Of a stretch of DNA of 64,000 bases, positions 8,135-19,726 are shown piece after piece. Position 1 is the stretch's first letter; each line of letters begins with the position of its first letter. A model generated the notes under the pieces. The model saw only the letters and a list, made by a program, of their open reading frames with translations. It was not told the DNA's origin and made no database searches. Source of the DNA: Gemmatimonadota bacterium (GTDB taxonomy: Bacteria; Gemmatimonadota; Gemmatimonadetes; JACCXV01; JAHWKZ01). The stretch covers positions 4,173 through 68,172 of the forward strand of contig JBOHRQ010000005.1 of NCBI GenBank assembly GCA_050732875.1, in the 5' to 3' direction. The position numbers and the translations under genes are program-made.

Positions 8135-8725
8135 ATGAGCGCGGATACTCTGGACGAGTACCGCCGGAAGCGTGACTTCCGGAAGACGAAGGAGCCACGT
8201 GGCGGGAGGAAGGGGAAGGCGGGCCGCCGCTTCGTGATCCAGAAGCACGACGCATCGTCGCTACACTACGACTTCCGCCTGGAGGCCGACGGCGTGCTCA
8301 AATCCTGGGCCGTCCCCAAGGGACCCTCCACCGATCCCCGGGACAAGCGGCTGGCCATGCCGACCGAGGACCACCCGCTGGGCTACCGCGACTTCGAGGG
8401 CGTGATCCCCGAAGGGGAGTACGGCGCCGGGGCGGTGATCGTCTGGGACCGGGGGACGTACCGGAACCTGACGGACGAGGACGGAGAGGAGACCCCGGTC
8501 GCCGATGCCATAGACGGTGGACACCTCAAGATCTGGCTGGACGGTGAGAAACTGCGCGGTGGCTTCGCGCTGACCAGGATCGGCAAGGCCAAGGACGAGC
8601 GCTGGCTCCTGGTCAAGATGGACGACGACGAGGCCGACGCCCGCCGCAACCCGGTCGGCACCGAGCCCCAGTCCGTTCTCACCGGCCGCACGGTCGAGGA
8701 GGTCGCCGAAGAGGAAGGCGGATGA
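8135..8725 (+). CDS. ligD: stand-alone LigD 3'-phosphoesterase (PE) domain protein
   Basis: 196 aa. FVIQKHDASSLHYDFRLE...LKSWAVPKGPS...EDHPL.Y..FEG.IP.GEYGAG motif series. Stop overlaps the next start (ATGA at 8722-8725). Confidence 0.88.
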   Translation: MSADTLDEYRRKRDFRKTKEPRGGRKGKAGRRFVIQKHDASSLHYDFRLEADGVLKSWAVPKGPSTDPRDKRLAMPTEDHPLGYRDFEGVIPEGEYGAGAVIVWDRGTYRNLTDEDGEETPVADAIDGGHLKIWLDGEKLRGGFALTRIGKAKDERWLLVKMDDDEADARRNPVGTEPQSVLTGRTVEEVAEEEGG

Positions 8726-9729
8726 AGGACCCGTTCGGGCCGCTCTCCGACGACGTGCGCGGGAAGCTGCGGAAGCGGACGCATCCTGTCTGGGTCCAGC
8801 CCATGCTGGCGACCCTGACCGACCAGCCCTTCTCTGACAAGGACTGGATCTACGAGCGCAAGCTGGACGGCATCCGATGCCTCGCCTTCCGCGACGGCGA
8901 CCGGGTGCGGCTCCTGTCGCGGAACCAGAAGAGCCAGAACGAAACCTATCCCGAGCTGGTCGACGCGATCGCCGCTCAGAAGCCGCGCGACTTCGTGGCC
9001 GACGGCGAGATCGTCGCCTTCGATGGGAGCGTGACCAGCTTCTCCCGCCTTCAGCGGCGGATGAAGATCGCCGACGCCGGGACGGCCCGCCGCTCGGGCG
9101 TGGCGGTGTACTACTACCTCTTCGATCTCGTCCATCTGGACGGCCGGGACACGACGCGGCTCCCGCTGCGAGATCGGAAATCCCTCCTCGAGCGCGTGGT
9201 CCGGTTCGAGGACCCGCTCCGCTTCTCGGCCCACCGGGACGCCGAGGGCGAGAAGTACCTGGAGGAGGCGTGCCGCAAGGGGTGGGAAGGGCTGATCGCC
9301 AAGCGCGCCGACTCGACCTACGTGCACCACCGCTCCCGGGACTGGCTCAAGCTCAAGTGCGTGGCGCGCCAGGAGTTCGTGGTCGGCGGATGGACCGAGC
9401 CGCGCGGCAGCCGGGTCGGACTGGGCGCGCTCCTGGTCGGCGTCTACGACGACGGCGACCTCCGCTACGCGGGCAAGGTCGGGACCGGGTACGATGACGA
9501 GACCCTGCGCGATCTGAGCGCGCGGCTTTCCTCGATCGAGCGAAAGACCCCGCCCTTCCGCGATTCCGACGGGATCGCGAAGAAGGGCGTCCACTGGGCA
9601 TCCCCGAAGCTGGTGGCGGAGGTCGGCTTCACCGAGTGGACGACCGACGGAAAGCTCCGCCATCCGCGCTTCCTGGGCCTCCGTCGCGACAAGGATCCGA
9701 AGTCGGTGGTGCGCGAGCGGCCGCGATGA
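8722..9729 (+). CDS. ligD: stand-alone ATP-dependent DNA ligase (LigD ligase domain)
   Basis: 335 aa. Adenylation motif I ERKLDGIRCLAF (KxDG). OB-fold tail. ATGA overlap with both neighbours. Confidence 0.9.
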   Translation: MKDPFGPLSDDVRGKLRKRTHPVWVQPMLATLTDQPFSDKDWIYERKLDGIRCLAFRDGDRVRLLSRNQKSQNETYPELVDAIAAQKPRDFVADGEIVAFDGSVTSFSRLQRRMKIADAGTARRSGVAVYYYLFDLVHLDGRDTTRLPLRDRKSLLERVVRFEDPLRFSAHRDAEGEKYLEEACRKGWEGLIAKRADSTYVHHRSRDWLKLKCVARQEFVVGGWTEPRGSRVGLGALLVGVYDDGDLRYAGKVGTGYDDETLRDLSARLSSIERKTPPFRDSDGIAKKGVHWASPKLVAEVGFTEWTTDGKLRHPRFLGLRRDKDPKSVVRERPR

Positions 9730-10643
9730 GCAGGTCGAAAGCCCTCGAGCTGGAGATAGGCGGCCGCGCGATCGGGGTGTCGAGCCCCGACAAGGTCCTT
9801 TTCCCGGACGCGGAGATCACCAAGGCGGATCTGGCCGACTACTACGCCCGGATAGCCGACAAGATGCTGCCCCATCTGGCGGGAAGACCGATATCGATGC
9901 AGCGCTTTCCGGACGGGATCGACGGCGAGACCTTCTTCCAGAAGGATGTCCCCGACTACTTCCCGGACTGGATCCGGACCGCGAAGGTGAAGAAGGAGGA
10001 CGGGAGCCTCCACATGGTGATCGCCGAGGAGGCGGCCACGCTGGTCTACCTGGCCAACCAGGCCTCCATCACCCCGCACGTCTGGCTGTCGCGAATCGAC
10101 CGACCGCATCGGCCGGACCGGCTGATCTTCGATTTCGATCCCTCGGTCGACGATTTCGGATCCGTGCGCGACGCGGCGCGCGGGATGCGGGACCTGCTCG
10201 AGGAGACGGGTCTCGTCCCGTTCGTCATGACGACCGGGTCGAGAGGGCTCCACGTCACCGTCCCGCTCGACCGGAGCGGAGATTTCGACGCGGCCCGCGG
10301 CTTCGCCCGCCGCTGCGCCGAGCTTCTGGTCGCCCGCCGTCCCGACGACCTCACGGTCGAGCAACGAAAGGCGAAGCGCGGCGACCGGGTCTACATCGAC
10401 ACCATGCGGAACGCCTACGCGCAGACCGCGGTCGCGCCCTACTCCGTCCGGGCCCGGCCGGGTGCGCCGGTCGCGACCCCGCTCGGCTGGGACGAGGTGG
10501 GTCGTGCCAGGCCGGACGGCTACACGATCTCGAACCTGTTCCGCCGGCTGGCCAGGAAGGATGATCCATGGGCAGGGATCGACCGCGAGGCGGGAGCCGT
10601 CAATCGGGCGTCGGCGCGACTGCAGGAGATAGAGCAGGGCTGA
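9726..10643 (+). CDS. ligD: stand-alone LigD polymerase/primase (AEP) domain protein
   Basis: 305 aa from ATG 9726 (inside track ORF 9636..10643). LSSPDKVLFPD..ITKADLADYY...LAGRPISMQRFPDGI...FFQKD pattern. Confidence 0.88.
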   Translation: MSRSKALELEIGGRAIGVSSPDKVLFPDAEITKADLADYYARIADKMLPHLAGRPISMQRFPDGIDGETFFQKDVPDYFPDWIRTAKVKKEDGSLHMVIAEEAATLVYLANQASITPHVWLSRIDRPHRPDRLIFDFDPSVDDFGSVRDAARGMRDLLEETGLVPFVMTTGSRGLHVTVPLDRSGDFDAARGFARRCAELLVARRPDDLTVEQRKAKRGDRVYIDTMRNAYAQTAVAPYSVRARPGAPVATPLGWDEVGRARPDGYTISNLFRRLARKDDPWAGIDREAGAVNRASARLQEIEQG

Positions 10644-14211: not shown

Positions 14212-16048
14212 CTAATAGCAAAAGCCGAAAAACCTCTCTCGAGGATTTTGGTCAAGCTACCAAGGGCGCACGGTGAATGCCTTGGCTCGAGCAGGCGAAG
14301 AAGGACGTGGTAAGCTGCGATAAGCCCCGGGGAGCTGCAAACAAGCTTTGATCCGGGGATTTCCGAATGGGGCAACCCCCGCGCTTCATCGCGCGGTATC
14401 CGCCGGCTGAATTCATAGGCCGGTGGAGGCCAACCCGGGGGACTGAAACATCTAAGTACCCGGAGGAAGAGAAAGCAACCGCGATTCCGTGAGTAGCGGC
14501 GAGCGAAAGCGGAACAGCCCAAACCGGTGTGGTGTCAAGCCTGCAAGCGTTGCCACATCGGGGTCGTGGGAACTGCGAGGAGGCCGTTGCAGCGGTTTCC
14601 GGGAGTCACAAAGGCGATCGCTAGCCGAATCATCCTGGAAAGGTGACCCAGAGAAGGTGAAAGTCCTGTAGGCGAAAGCGACTCGCTCTCCCGCGGCAGT
14701 TTCCCAAGTAATGCGGGACCCGAGAAATCCTGCATGAATTCGCGAGGACCATCTCGTAAGGCTAAACACTCGCTCGAGACCGATAGCGAACCAGTACCGT
14801 GAGGGAAAGGTGAAAAGGACTCCTGACGGAGAGTGAAATAGAACCTGAAACCGTGTGCCTACAAGCTGTAGGAGGTTGGCCGGCCTTCGGGTCGGTACGA
14901 CTGACTGCGTGCCTTTTGCATAATGAGCCGGCGAGTTGCTGCTACGTAGCGAGCTTAAGGGGAAACCCCCCGAAGGCGTAGCGAAAGCGAGTCCGAAATG
15001 GGCGACTGAGTTGCGTGGCGCAGACCCGAAGGGTGGTGATCTACCCATGGCCAGGTTGAAGCGGAGGTAACACTCCGTGAAGGACCGAACCGGTGAAGGT
15101 TAAAAACTTCTCGGATGAGCTGTGGGTAGGGGTGAAAGGCTAATCAAACCACCTGATAGCTGGTTCTCCCCGAAAGATATTTTGGTATCGCCTCGCGAAT
15201 GAGTGTGCCGGAGGTAGAGCACTGGATGGGCTAGGGGCCCTACCAGGTTACCAAACCCAACCAAACTCCGAATGCCGGTCACATGCTTCGCGGGAGGCAG
15301 CTGCTGGGGGATAAGCTCCAGTGACGAGAGGGAAACAACCCAGACCGACAGCTAAGGTCCCCAAGTTCTGGCTAAGTGACAAAGGATGTGGATTTGCACA
15401 GACAACTGGGAGGTTGGCTTAGAAGCAGCCATTCCTTGAAAGAGTGCGTAACAGCTCACCAGTCAAGTGGATCCGCGCCGATAATTCACGGGACTCAAGC
15501 CAGGCGCCGAAGCTTCGGGTTGTGGCGGTCTGCGGACCGCTGCAGCGGTAGGGGAGCGTTCCATGCGGGCAGAAGTCATGCCGGAAGGCGTGGTGGACTG
15601 CATGGAAGTGATGATGCCGGCACGAGTAGCGATAATGAGGGTGAGAAACCCTCACGCCGAAAACCCAAGGGTTCCTGAGGAAGGCTAATCCGCTCAGGGT
15701 CAGTCGGAGCCTAAGGCGAGGCCGAAAGGCGTAGCCGATGGGAAACAGGTCAACATTCCTGTACCAGTCTGTGCGCGTTATGAGCTATGGGGTGACGCAG
15801 AGGTGAATCCCCATCCGGTGATGGATGTCCGGGTGCAAGGCTGTACGGAGGTCGGGTAGGCAAATCCGCCCGATCAATCCCGAGAGCCGATGCGGAGGGC
15901 CACCAGGCCCACAAAAGGGGAATAAGCTGACTGCCAGGAAAAACCTCTATGCCAGTTCACAGGCTGACCGTACCGTAAACCGACGCAGGTGGGTGGGGAG
16001 AGAATCCCAAGGCGCTCGAGAGAACTCTGGCTAAGGAACTCGGCAAAA

Positions 16049-16079
<31 letters not shown>

Positions 16080-16135
16080 GGGTGGGTGAACACCTTGCGT
16101 GGTAAGCCTGCCCGGGCCGCAGAGAATCGGCCCAA

Positions 16136-16166
<31 letters not shown>

Positions 16167-16288
16167 TAAGTCGTGAAGACGACGTATAGGGTCTGACGCC
16201 TGCCCGGTGCCGGAAGGTTAAGGGGAGCGGTTAGGGTTTCGGCCCGAAGCTGCAAACTGAAGCCCCGGTAAACGGCGGCCGTAACTAT

Positions 16289-16676
16289 GGTGCAAGGACC
16301 ACCGTAGTTCCGAGAACAAATCTGGCTATATGCTGGGACACCCGGTTGATGCACCGGTACTCGCCACTAGGCTGATGCGGCCGAAGAAGGTGGCAGTGAA
16401 AATCCGGTGCGGACGGGCAATCAGCAGGAAAGGCTCGAATGCTCGAGGTCAATCGCATCCAAGTTTGACCGAGAGCTGGCTTTCGATTCCCACGAAGGGA
16501 AGCGGAGGATGCGCGGGCGAGACGCTCTTCGTCCGGTTCGAGAATCCTCAGAGACTGCACGCCAGACCGCCGGCGCCTGCCGGCGGATGATACAGTCCGG
16601 ACTGCATGGCAACATGCAGAGCGCGGCAGAAATGATCGCGCCCACCGTCACGCCCGTGACGGTGAGTAACAAATCG
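16289..16676 (+). mobile_element. group I intron 1 in 23S rRNA (after E. coli U1917), 388 nt, no credible ORF
   Basis: Follows exon ...GUAACUAU and ends in G before AACGGU. Guide GUAGUU (16304-16309) pairs with exon AACUAU with a U-G wobble. P7 GACUG 16553-57 / CAGUC 16593-97. Core strings CAGAGACUGCACGCC and GAUACAGUCCGGAC. Confidence 0.85.
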
Positions 16677-16682
16677 AACGGT

Positions 16683-16912
16683 CAACCTTAGAGGCCGTTC
16701 TGAAATCCGGCTATATGCTGGAAACTCCGTCGAATCCGGCGCTACCAGCCTGACGCCAGTCGGGCGGTGACAATGCGACCGGTGCGGACAATCAGCAGGA
16801 AAGACCGGTGATCGGTCAATCGATCGCCGGAATCCTCAGAGGCCATACGCCGGACACGCACTGCGTGAAGAGATGGTCCGATCTGCATGGCGACATGCAG
16901 CTAACACAAATG
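16683..16912 (+). mobile_element. group I intron 2 in 23S rRNA (after E. coli U1923), 230 nt, paralogue of intron 1
   Basis: Follows the 6-nt exon AACGGU (16677-16682) and ends in G before CCUAAGG. Guide GCCGUU (16694-16699) pairs with AACGGU. P7 GGCCAU 16841-46 / AUGGUC 16873-78. Shares blocks GGCTATATGCTGG, CAATCAGCAGGAAAG, GAATCCTCAGAG, CTGCATGGCRACATGCAG with intron 1. Confidence 0.85.
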
Positions 16913-17713
<801 letters not shown>

Positions 17714-17993
17714 AAGTTCCGACCTGCACGAATGGCGTAACGACTTGGGCGCTGTCTCGGCCAGAGACTCGGTGAAACTGCAGTATCGGTGAAGATACCG
17801 ATTACCCGCGACAGGACAAAAAGACCCTGTGCACCTTTACTACAACCTGATATTGGGTTCTAGTTGGTCTTGTGTAGGATAGGTGGGAGGCTATGAAGCG
17901 CGGGCGCTAGCCCGCGTGGAGCCAACCGTGAAATACCACCCTTGGTCAATTGGAATTCTAACCCGCGGCCGTGAAGCCGGCCGGGGGACAGTG

Positions 17994-18027
<34 letters not shown>

Positions 18028-18231
18028 CAAAGAGTAACGGAGGCGCGCAAAGGTTCCCTCAGTGCGGTCGGTAATCGCACGTAGAGTGTAAAGGCAGAAG
18101 GGAGCTTGACTGCGAGACATACAGGTCGAGCAGATGCGAAAGCAGGCCTTAGTGATCCGGCGGTTGTGAATGGAAACGCCGTCGCTCAACGGATAAAAGG
18201 TACGCCAGGGATAACAGGCTTATCTCCCCCG

Positions 18232-18333
<102 letters not shown>

Positions 18334-18498
18334 TACGCGAGCTGGGTTTAGAACGTCGTGAGACAGTTCGGTCTGTATCCGTCGCGGGCGGAGGACACTT
18401 GAGGGGTTCTAACCTTAGTACGAGAGGACCGGGTTGGACGCACCGCTGGTGTACCTGTTGTGGCGCCAGCCGCAGCGCAGGGTAGCTATGTGCGGATG

Positions 18499-18531
<33 letters not shown>

Positions 18532-18711
18532 TGCCCCGAGATTAGGTGTCCCGCGGCGCAAGCCGCCTGAAGGGCCGTGGGAGACGACCACGTTGATAGG
18601 CCGCAGGTGCAAGCACAGAAATGTGTTCAGCCGAGCGGTACTAATCGCCCGTGAGGCTTGACCAACTTCTTCTTGAGAGGTTCAACGGCTCCGGTCGCTT
18701 CGGCGATCGGC

Positions 18712-18754: not shown

Positions 18755-18803
18755 CGGCTATCGGAGATCGGCGATCGCCGCGAGCGGCGGTCGTCTTCGG
18801 TTT

Positions 18804-18917
<114 letters not shown>

Positions 18918-18926
18918 TCTTTCAAG

Positions 18927-18968: not shown

Positions 18969-19170
18969 CCAGGGGATGGTAGACGGTGAAGAGGTCCGTC
19001 GCGCTTGATCGCGTTCGAGACCGGCCCCAGAGCGTCCATCCCTGCCGGGAGGTGGCGTGGTCGGGGCTGTAATCCCAGATCGCACACGTGCTCTTGTAAG
19101 GCCGGGGCTCACGATAGTACTTGTACCCCGTAGGGGATACACAGAGAAGCAGAAAGTGAGGATTGATTTG

Positions 19171-19437
19171 GTGACCAAGAAGAGTGCCTATGTCCGGGCC
19201 CGCACCGAGCCCGAGCTGAAGAAGCGAGCCGAGGCGGTTTTCCGCCATGTCGGCCTTACGCCCTCGGATGCCATCAACATGCTGTATCGCCAAGCAGCCT
19301 TGCGAGGCGAGGTGCCTATCGAGCTAAAGCTTCCCAATGAAGTAACACGCCGAGCGATTGAGGATGCCCGATCCGGTCGGAAACTGATAGAAGCCAAGAC
19401 AGCAAAGGAATTATTCGCGCTCCTCGAGGCTGAATAG
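19171..19437 (+). CDS. relB: RelB/DinJ-family antitoxin
   Basis: 88 aa from GTG 19171 (RBS GTGAGGA). YVRARTEPELKKRAEAVFRHVGLTPSDAINMLYRQ... is the DinJ ribbon-helix-helix pattern. Confidence 0.8.
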   Translation: MTKKSAYVRARTEPELKKRAEAVFRHVGLTPSDAINMLYRQAALRGEVPIELKLPNEVTRRAIEDARSGRKLIEAKTAKELFALLEAE

Positions 19438-19714
19438 TTGACGAGACGAAGCCCGCGCGCGACGCGTCAGTTCAAGAAGGACTGGCACCGGATGAAAGCG
19501 CGCGGCCTGCATTTGACCACGCTCCGTGACGTTCATGACTGAGCTGATCACCGGGGAGACACTCGAGTTAAACCGACGGCCCCATCCCCTCAAGGGGGAG
19601 TACTGGGATTGCATGGAGTGCCACCTGGGTGGCGATTGGCTCCTCATCTGGCAGCAGATCGAGGACGAAATCGTGTTCGTGCGGACCGGCACGCACGAGG
19701 ATCTGTTTGGATAG
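19438..19714 (+). pseudogene. yafQ: YafQ/RelE-family mRNA interferase toxin gene with a +1 frameshift
   Basis: TTG 19438 opens LTRRSPRATRQFKKDWHRMKARGLHLTTLRDV then hits TGA 19540. The continuation MTELITGETL...HPLKGEYWDCMECHLGGDWLLIWQQIEDEIVFVRTGTHEDLFG is in the next frame (track ORF 19526..19714). One extra C near 19533. Confidence 0.75.
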
Positions 19715-19726
19715 ATTCCGAGGGTC

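Follow-up and report, generated by a model that had tools for sequence, protein, structure and literature searches.

The window analysed here, a stretch of 64,000 nucleotides from a metagenome-assembled genome (MAG) of a Gemmatimonadota bacterium (contig JBOHRQ010000005.1, positions 4,173 to 68,172 of the forward strand), contains a 23S ribosomal RNA (rRNA) gene in which two group I introns without open reading frames (ORFs) flank an exon of only 6 nt in helix 69. We find that these are separate and complete introns of one compact group I family, which occupies the sites L1911, L1917, L1923 and L1931 (L for the large subunit, LSU, followed by the Escherichia coli position after which the intron lies) across several bacterial phyla. 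An original prediction, made from the letters alone, had read the pair as one intron lineage colonising a second site 6 nt away. Comparison with the rest of the family indicates that the two introns probably reached the gene independently of each other, one at L1917 and the other at L1923.

Two complete introns around a 6-nt exon

Positions in the 23S rRNA were numbered by alignment to E. coli, anchored on the helix 69 pseudouridines at 1911, 1915 and 1917. The exons and introns follow one another as GGCCGUAACUAU (ending at 1917), intron 1, AACGGU, intron 2 and an exon starting with CCUAAGGUAGCG. The features of the gene and of the pair, in window coordinates, are the following.

14250..18665, forward strand: 23S rRNA gene (Rfam RF02541, 2665.7 bits, full-length over model positions 1-2925), housing three introns
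16289..16676, forward strand: intron 1, an ORF-less group I intron of 388 nt; site L1917 (follows E. coli U1917), helix 69 loop
16295..16300, forward strand: AGGACC, putative P10 strand of intron 1, predicted to pair in register with GGUCCU at exon positions 1921-1926
16304..16309, forward strand: internal guide of intron 1, GUAGUU, forming P1 with the 5' exon AACUAU, with a U1917.G wobble at the splice site
16433..16541, forward strand: expanded P6 region of intron 1, of about 110 nt (intron 2, 27 nt; related locus L060, 19 nt), which includes GGTCAATCG
16602..16619, forward strand: P9 hairpin of intron 1, CUGCAUG-GCAA-CAUGCAG, with a GNRA loop; helix 6 of the family, with both-side changes in 5 of 7 pairs
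16676, forward strand: omega-G of intron 1, read from the sequence; the 3' end motif of the family is UAACA...G
16677..16682, forward strand: 6-nt exon AACGGU, 23S positions 1918-1923 by alignment to E. coli, loop and 3' strand of helix 69
16683..16912, forward strand: intron 2, 230 nt, ORF-less group I intron after U1923 (L1923)
16694..16699, forward strand: internal guide of intron 2, GCCGUU, forming P1 with the entire exon AACGGU, with a U1923.G wobble at the splice site
16883..16900, forward strand: P9 hairpin of intron 2, CUGCAUG-GCGA-CAUGCAG; the L1931 introns of loci L002 and L054 have an identical hairpin
16912, forward strand: omega-G of intron 2, read from the sequence

The E. coli alignment places the intron boundaries and the 6-nt exon exactly where they had been predicted. 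The motif AACGGT occurs only once in the 624 nt from 16289 to 16912, at 16677, and the exon is undisturbed in relatives that carry just one of the L1917 and L1923 introns. Since both introns are complete and are parted by a genuine exon that is kept in relatives with either intron alone, the arrangement is not a twintron. The whole gene exceeds the bacterial model length by about 1,490 nt, chiefly through three insertions around helices 69-71, and the bacterial LSU model sees intron 1, the exon and intron 2 as a single insertion of 621 nt.

The original reading of both elements as homologous group I introns without ORFs is borne out by matches to Rfam RF00028 (64.1 bits for intron 2, where the gathering score is 50), by the core pairs and by the lack of any credible Pfam match in the pair. 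Two ORFs that overlap the introns, at 16407-16691 on the forward strand and 16285-16560 on the reverse strand, were considered and rejected as spurious, neither having a credible Pfam match. To describe the core we aligned 20 family members and took the pairs of P3, P4, P5, P6, P7 and P9 from the pairings of intron 2, leaving out P8 and P5abc because they align poorly. Over the resulting 32 core pairs, 97.6% of the cells are paired, and sliding the 3' partner by 1-3 columns lowers this figure to 33-42%; 14 of the pairs show changes on both sides, and the observed covariation score was reached by none of 500 shuffles. Intron 2 forms all 32 core pairs.

Each guide makes a contiguous P1 of 6 bp with its own exon and does not fit the site of the other intron, and the difference in P7 between the two introns is compensatory (columns 303/354 and 304/353), in line with the guide matching and P7 covariation that had been noted from the sequence. 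The extra peripheral insertions ascribed to intron 1 are also real and consist of the enlarged P6 and a 57-nt tail beyond P9. The same guide logic extends to the family, in which a P1 of 6 contiguous bp with the intron's own exon is found for all 37 L1917 introns and for 77 of the 100 L1923 introns, with almost no cross-fit, and in relatives whose exon reads AACCGU or AAGGGU the L1923 guide is altered to match the exon variant.

Relationships and origins of the two introns

Family introns were gathered from other genomes and metagenomes by their exon junctions and not by intron sequence, to avoid bias; loci found in this way are cited by three-digit handles such as L060. On the core columns, with the site-determined P1 region excluded, introns 1 and 2 are 67.6% identical (rank 55, for intron 2, and rank 17 of 58), and their similarity was the last of 26 in an earlier, smaller set. 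In one scoring scheme over 161 introns their mutual ranks are 108 (for intron 2) and 73, and intron 2 scores 150-183 against L1923, L1931 and L1917 introns elsewhere as against 75 with intron 1. Near-sister placement of the two was recovered in 0 of 200 bootstraps, so that, guide aside, they are not each other's closest relatives. Intron 1 groups instead with the L1917 introns of two Gemmatimonadota loci, L060 and L072, in 200 of 200 bootstraps [core identity 85.5% (L060) and 82.7% (L072); alignment scores 372 and 275], and the best core matches of intron 2 are the L1923 introns of L227 (82%) and L139 (80.5%). The low mutual identity and rank, the contrast between 0/200 and 200/200 bootstraps and the closer relatives elsewhere argue for separate origins.

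The hosts point the same way. The Gemmatimonadota MAG L060 matches the window at 97.8% and 99.0% identity in its 23S exons and has upstream protein genes in common with it. Its 23S gene contains an L1917 intron orthologous to intron 1, together with an L1951 intron that has no ORF, and its undisrupted AACGGU-CCUAAGG shows that it has no L1923 intron. The hosts of the nearest L1923 and L1931 relatives of intron 2, by comparison, have 23S genes 71-84% identical to that of the window (71-78% for L227). As L060 has only the first intron of the pair and the kin of intron 2 live in distant hosts, it looks as if intron 1 was inherited within the lineage, whereas intron 2 either arrived in a separate event or disappeared from L060. 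Intron 1 is a member of an L1917 lineage common to other Gemmatimonadota, and intron 2 comes from another lineage with its nearest members at L1923 and L1931; its presence would reflect either a gain since the window's lineage parted from its closest sampled relative or, in that relative, a loss. Intron 2 probably came to its site by homing, through recombination with an allele that already had the intron, or by reverse splicing.

Several observations weigh against so simple an account. Neighbour-joining was used for the trees, which are based on about 230 core columns of the MAFFT alignment with 200 bootstraps and are weak in their deep branches. The sister of intron 2 is unstable, being the L1923 intron of L227 (L227_1923) in 110 of 200 bootstraps and the L1931 pair of the Dormibacteraeota loci L002 and L054 in 64. 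Intron 1 scores 48.3 bits against RF00028 (E = 9e-11), slightly under the gathering score, a shortfall that we attribute to its large peripheral insertions (its L1917 orthologues score 50.8 bits in L060 and 67.8 bits in L072), and it forms 30 of the 32 core pairs. Both scans picked loci by junction patterns, and the frequencies given in this study are lower bounds for samples that are not random. Finally, self-splicing of the two introns is a prediction from their sequences.

The similarity between the window and L060 is itself uneven. Identity is 97-98% through the upstream 23S sequence and nt 1-146 of intron 1 (97.9% to nt 146), falls to 77% over nt 147-388 and is 99% after the L1951 intron, with the breakpoint near 16434, right behind the family-conserved CAATCAGCAGGAAAG block. 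Such a pattern would follow from recombination or from co-conversion around mobile introns, or perhaps from a mixing of strains in the assembly. With its breakpoint inside intron 1, the mosaic is also a point in favour of an alternative in which the introns had independent origins and a patch of P6 was later converted locally from one to the other, or in which both retain the same fragment of a lost endonuclease gene. The P6 regions of both introns contain GGTCAATCG(C)ATC, with the 9-mer GGTCAATCG at 16447-16455 and 16814-16822. A match of 9 nt or longer to either intron is absent from the 51 other ORF-less P6 regions, and shuffling gives a probability of about 0.0095, a hint of some local exchange that independent arrival by itself would not call for. 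The patch is bordered by blocks of 15 nt and 12 nt that are identical in both introns and could have supported recombination, and the endonuclease genes of L1917 introns have GGTCAATCG in their WEVNR codons. The 9-mer could also be shared by chance. We nevertheless regard this alternative as unlikely, since the pattern was chosen post hoc and is only 9 nt long, the 9-mer lies in a loop in intron 2 and in a stem strand in intron 1, and the P6 insert of intron 1 is only weakly similar to endonuclease genes. That insert was also considered as a LAGLIDADG remnant in its own right and rejected: taken alone it gives a best blastx E of about 0.3, and its nucleotide z-scores reach at most 5.4 with very lenient gaps (median about 1.9), the resemblance consisting of short collinear peptide echoes (LEVNRI, GKRR..LR).

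The original prediction favoured a more local event, in which one intron was copied within the lineage and retargeted 6 nt away, leaving two recent sister paralogues. The introns are indeed homologous and collinear. They share near-identical blocks in the same order (176 identities in 214 aligned columns with lenient gap penalties, also recovered as direct repeats D1-D3), their local alignment scores 75.4 as against 18.2 ± 2.3 (maximum 26) in 200 shuffles, their guides differ as retargeting would need, and the 9-mer in P6 is unique to the pair among ORF-less members. The alignment that had been proposed as a check thus finds similarity far beyond that of shuffled sequences, but almost all of the blocks listed are common to the whole family: of 153 members, 80 have GGCTATATGCTGG exactly, 76 have CAATCAGCAGGAAAG, 73 have GAATCCTCAGAG and 32 have the P9 hairpin, and exact blocks, including the hairpin, are spread across L1917, L1923 and L1931. 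Because they are conserved family-wide, the shared blocks are not evidence of local duplication. Movement between neighbouring sites did take place at the level of the family, with at least 9 site switches on the tree of 59 introns, where site is strongly clustered (9 changes as against 23.9 with shuffled labels). To that extent the idea of a second site being colonised holds, but local copying does not fit the core identity, the bootstraps or the clearly closer same-site kin that each intron has in other organisms, and other tandems of L1917 and L1923 introns are likewise not sisters. We consider a local duplication very improbable and prefer independent arrival.

It is just as hard to regard the introns as decayed, that is, as elements that no longer self-splice in an rRNA that is fragmented or processed by nucleases, with the 624 nt cut out as a unit, or in a pseudogene. 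Intron 1 falls under the Rfam threshold and has large insertions, some family members are without omega-G, and neither intron carries an endonuclease gene, as would be expected late in the intron life cycle. The 23S gene is, however, otherwise full-length and 98-99% identical to that of a relative, guides, U.G pairs, core pairs and omega-G are in place in both introns, and removal as one unit would lose 6 conserved nucleotides of helix 69. An assembly artefact, in which the tandem is a chimeric join of the rRNA operons of two strains, can be dismissed almost entirely: the locus is a single MAG contig, rRNA operons are easily mis-assembled and identity to L060 drops sharply behind a family-conserved block at nt 146 of intron 1, but neither intron is truncated, a guide, a core and an omega-G being present in each, and beyond the breakpoint the sequence remains that of an L1917 intron of the Gemmatimonadota clade. 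Strains with only the L1917 or only the L1923 intron would moreover share just 6 nt at the junction, which is too short for an assembler to bridge, and the layout recurs in at least four diverged contigs of other samples and in a chloroplast genome that is finished (PMC4487195). An independent assembly of the locus was sought by exact match to three proteins, the 223-aa ORF, the 213-aa endonuclease and a flanking oxidoreductase, which gave no match or only the window's own contig.

The intron family in other organisms

In the genome scan, an occupied L1917 site was sought with the pattern GGTRAACGGCGGCCGTAACTATB, which assumes that A1918 is universal, and the window's own genome is not among the matches listed. 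Most of those matches reflect not introns but a naturally occurring A1918G change in Planctomycetota and Spirochaetota, so that this variant produces false positives in junction-based intron searches; about 35 loci among the matches listed have real introns. L1917 and L1931 introns in tandem, separated by a 14-nt exon, occur in at least 11 genomes belonging to Dormibacteraeota, Solirubrobacterales and Gemmatimonadota, some of which also have an L1951 intron. Among the genome loci in the matches listed, L1923 is occupied only in the window. The variant itself, A1918G in the helix 69 loop (CUAUGACGGU), is present in about 80 of the loci L002-L121 (for example L006-L009 and L056), in 23S genes of Planctomycetota and Spirochaetota.

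The metagenome scan, for which the 3' end of the family was joined to C1924, gives a different picture of L1923. Introns of the family are found there in at least 100 contigs. The L1923 intron stands alone in at least 83 contigs, and at least 13 further contigs have a helix 69 stem-variant exon (AACCGU or AAGGGU) with a matching guide, which brings the contigs with only the L1923 intron to at least 96; relatives with a single intron, the object of a metagenome search suggested at the outset, thus exist in numbers. At least seven contigs (L165, L192, L212, L176, L219, L135, L213) combine an L1911 intron and an L1923 intron around a 12-nt exon. The L1911 insertion, which lies after U1911 (...G/AACUAU AACGGU/...), adds a fourth helix 69 site to the family.

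The exact layout of the window, L1917 intron, AACGGU and L1923 intron, is present in at least four metagenome contigs (L146, L235, L239 and L241), which also have the same ribozyme core, guide logic and hotspot. The tandem of the L146 type is at 47-48% GC, comes from an unrelated host of lower GC and has an endonuclease gene in its L1923 intron. Its two introns are likewise non-sisters and are unrelated to the pair of the window, which means that the layout has at least two origins, in each of which two hot sites were colonised independently.

Some members of the family differ in structure from the pair. The L1931 introns of L002, L054, L010, L029, L049 and L016 end in A directly before A1932, with P1 setting the 5' splice site after U1931, and appear to be without a canonical omega-G. 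L1917 introns of about 700 nt with a LAGLIDADG ORF running through the ribozyme core are found in L030, L106, L107, L016, L005, L023, L089 and L119. In such ORFs P3/P4 is read as NSAICW, P5'/P4'/P6 as ADNQQER and P6'/P7 as RILRDYTP; because the core is translated, the most conserved RNA blocks are under dual constraint in endonuclease-bearing members. An overlap of endonuclease ORFs with the ribozyme core has been described for L1917 introns (PMC1995217), and the ORFs of this family conform to it.

Organelles, archaea and a few bacteria are already known to have group I introns clustered around helix 69, and the exact layout of the window is annotated in a chloroplast, which, together with the four metagenome contigs, weakens the novelty first claimed for the layout. 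In Tydemania expeditionis the chloroplast rrl has group I introns at 1917, 1923 and 1931 (PMC4487195), that is, at the same two sites of a 23S rRNA of bacterial type and therefore around the same 6-nt exon, with a further neighbour 8 nt downstream. Compared by annotation, the three Tydemania introns all have LAGLIDADG genes and measure 776-1049 nt, whereas the pair of the window is ORF-less at 388 and 230 nt, and the third site is L1931 in the chloroplast but L1951 in the window, which belongs to a free-living bacterium. Mini-exons between organellar introns are reported to occur regularly (PMC10352661).

Archaeal introns of subgroup IB4 lie at LSU/1923 and LSU/1931, and KP308720.1 has both in tandem around an 8-nt exon (Nawrocki, Jones and Eddy 2018, PMC6125680). 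These introns resemble those of the window in being compact (203-392 nt) and in placing two members of one subgroup in tandem around a micro-exon, but their hosts are archaea and their sites are 1923 and 1931 instead of 1917 and 1923. The size of the introns of the window (230-388 nt) and the family's sites 1923 and 1931 would be compatible with IB4, the probable subgroup on these two properties; the label is uncertain, because L1917 and L1931 introns have been described as IC1-like and lacking P2 (PMC1995217).

For bacterial 23S genes, group I introns have been reported at L1917, L1931, L1951 and L2593 in Synechococcus C9, Thermotoga, Simkania and Coxiella (PMC1995217), clustered around helices 69-71 as in the window, where L1917 and L1951 are both occupied too, and a survey in 2024 of rRNA insertions in CPR (candidate phyla radiation) bacteria lists the sites 1917, 1931, 1952, 2593, 2604 and 2657 (PMC11270868). 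A bacterial L1923 intron appears in neither the table of the former nor the survey of the latter, although the site is commonly occupied in environmental bacteria.

The locus taken alone is of little importance. The L1917 and L1951 introns of Coxiella burnetii, reportedly described by Raghavan et al. in 2007, are said to flank an exon of 34 nt, as against 6 nt in the window. What the survey adds, at a modest level, is that in soil-type bacterial phyla a single compact intron family has spread widely over the helix 69 hotspot, L1923 included, spanning Gemmatimonadota, Dormibacteraeota, Solirubrobacterales and others, and that intron content changes quickly between close relatives. The annotation of rRNA is affected, since the merged insertion of the LSU model drops the micro-exon, and primer- or probe-based surveys are affected by helix 69 introns as well.

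Possible splicing of the pair and neighbouring features

Group I introns are spliced by a two-step pathway initiated by guanosine, and both introns would follow this ordinary pathway, each with its own guide. As originally noted, the 6-nt exon is the complete P1 substrate of intron 2 and at the same time the beginning of the 3' exon of intron 1. The P1 of intron 2 would take up the whole exon, and the candidate P10 of intron 1 would span the L1923 junction and overlap that P1 at G1921-U1923, so that the two helices could not coexist. With intron 2 removed the P10 of intron 1 has 6 bp, as against 4 bp with intron 2 present, and in most L1917 introns of the family P10 extends to C1924. The overlap and the better P10 after removal would favour sequential splicing with intron 2 first, so that the ordered or interdependent splicing originally proposed is a reasonable prediction. 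Both this order and the P10 pairing are plausible on the grounds of complementarity. We are doubtful of the stronger proposition that the 6-nt exon couples the ribozymes mechanically and makes the order obligatory, intron 2 first, so that the pair, along with the hops of the family between L1911, L1917, L1923 and L1931 and a possible conversion patch between the neighbours, would be a natural system for ribozyme interplay and guide retargeting in free-living bacteria. The exon does offer a compact natural substrate for asking whether adjacent ribozymes splice in a fixed order.

The remaining features of the rRNA region lie downstream of the pair.

16941..17713, forward strand: intron 3, 773 nt, at L1951, a neighbour outside the pair; the exon restarts at 17714
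17042-17683, forward strand: LAGLIDADG homing endonuclease gene in intron 3 (Pfam PF00961, E = 1e-23), a 213-aa gene in the source record
18803-18919: 5S rRNA gene, downstream of the 23S rRNA gene

The exon between introns 2 and 3 is CCUAAGGUAGCGAAAUUCCUUGUCGGGU (ending at 1951), and the sequence after intron 3 is AAGUUCCGACC. We set the site of intron 3 to L1951, which satisfies the need for a U at the end of the 5' exon, a boundary 3 nt later being also possible. RF00028 gives no match to this intron in the window, even at E <= 1. In L060 the L1951 intron is 315 nt long and ORF-less, as against 773 nt with the endonuclease gene in the window, and the two are 88% identical over the common part; the difference is an endonuclease gene gained or lost between close relatives. 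L060 also has an insertion of 635 nt between 1931 and 1932 that differs from the family, with no RF00028 call at the gathering score and no BLAST similarity to the family introns. A c-di-GMP-II riboswitch match within the 23S gene, at 17879-17950 (24.7 bits as against a cut-off of 53.5, E = 0.021), and a sub-threshold Chlorobi-1 match were taken as chance.

No 16S gene is found within the 64-kb window, and hence none upstream of the 23S-5S pair, so that the rRNA operon is unlinked; in L072, a more distant Gemmatimonadota locus, the 16S gene is directly upstream. Genes for a LigD-type ligase and a primase-polymerase lie upstream of the rRNA genes of the window, at about 8135-10643 (3763-6271 in L242), and a RelB/YafQ toxin-antitoxin pair lies just 3' of the 5S gene, at about 19170-19715 (14799-15342 in L242).

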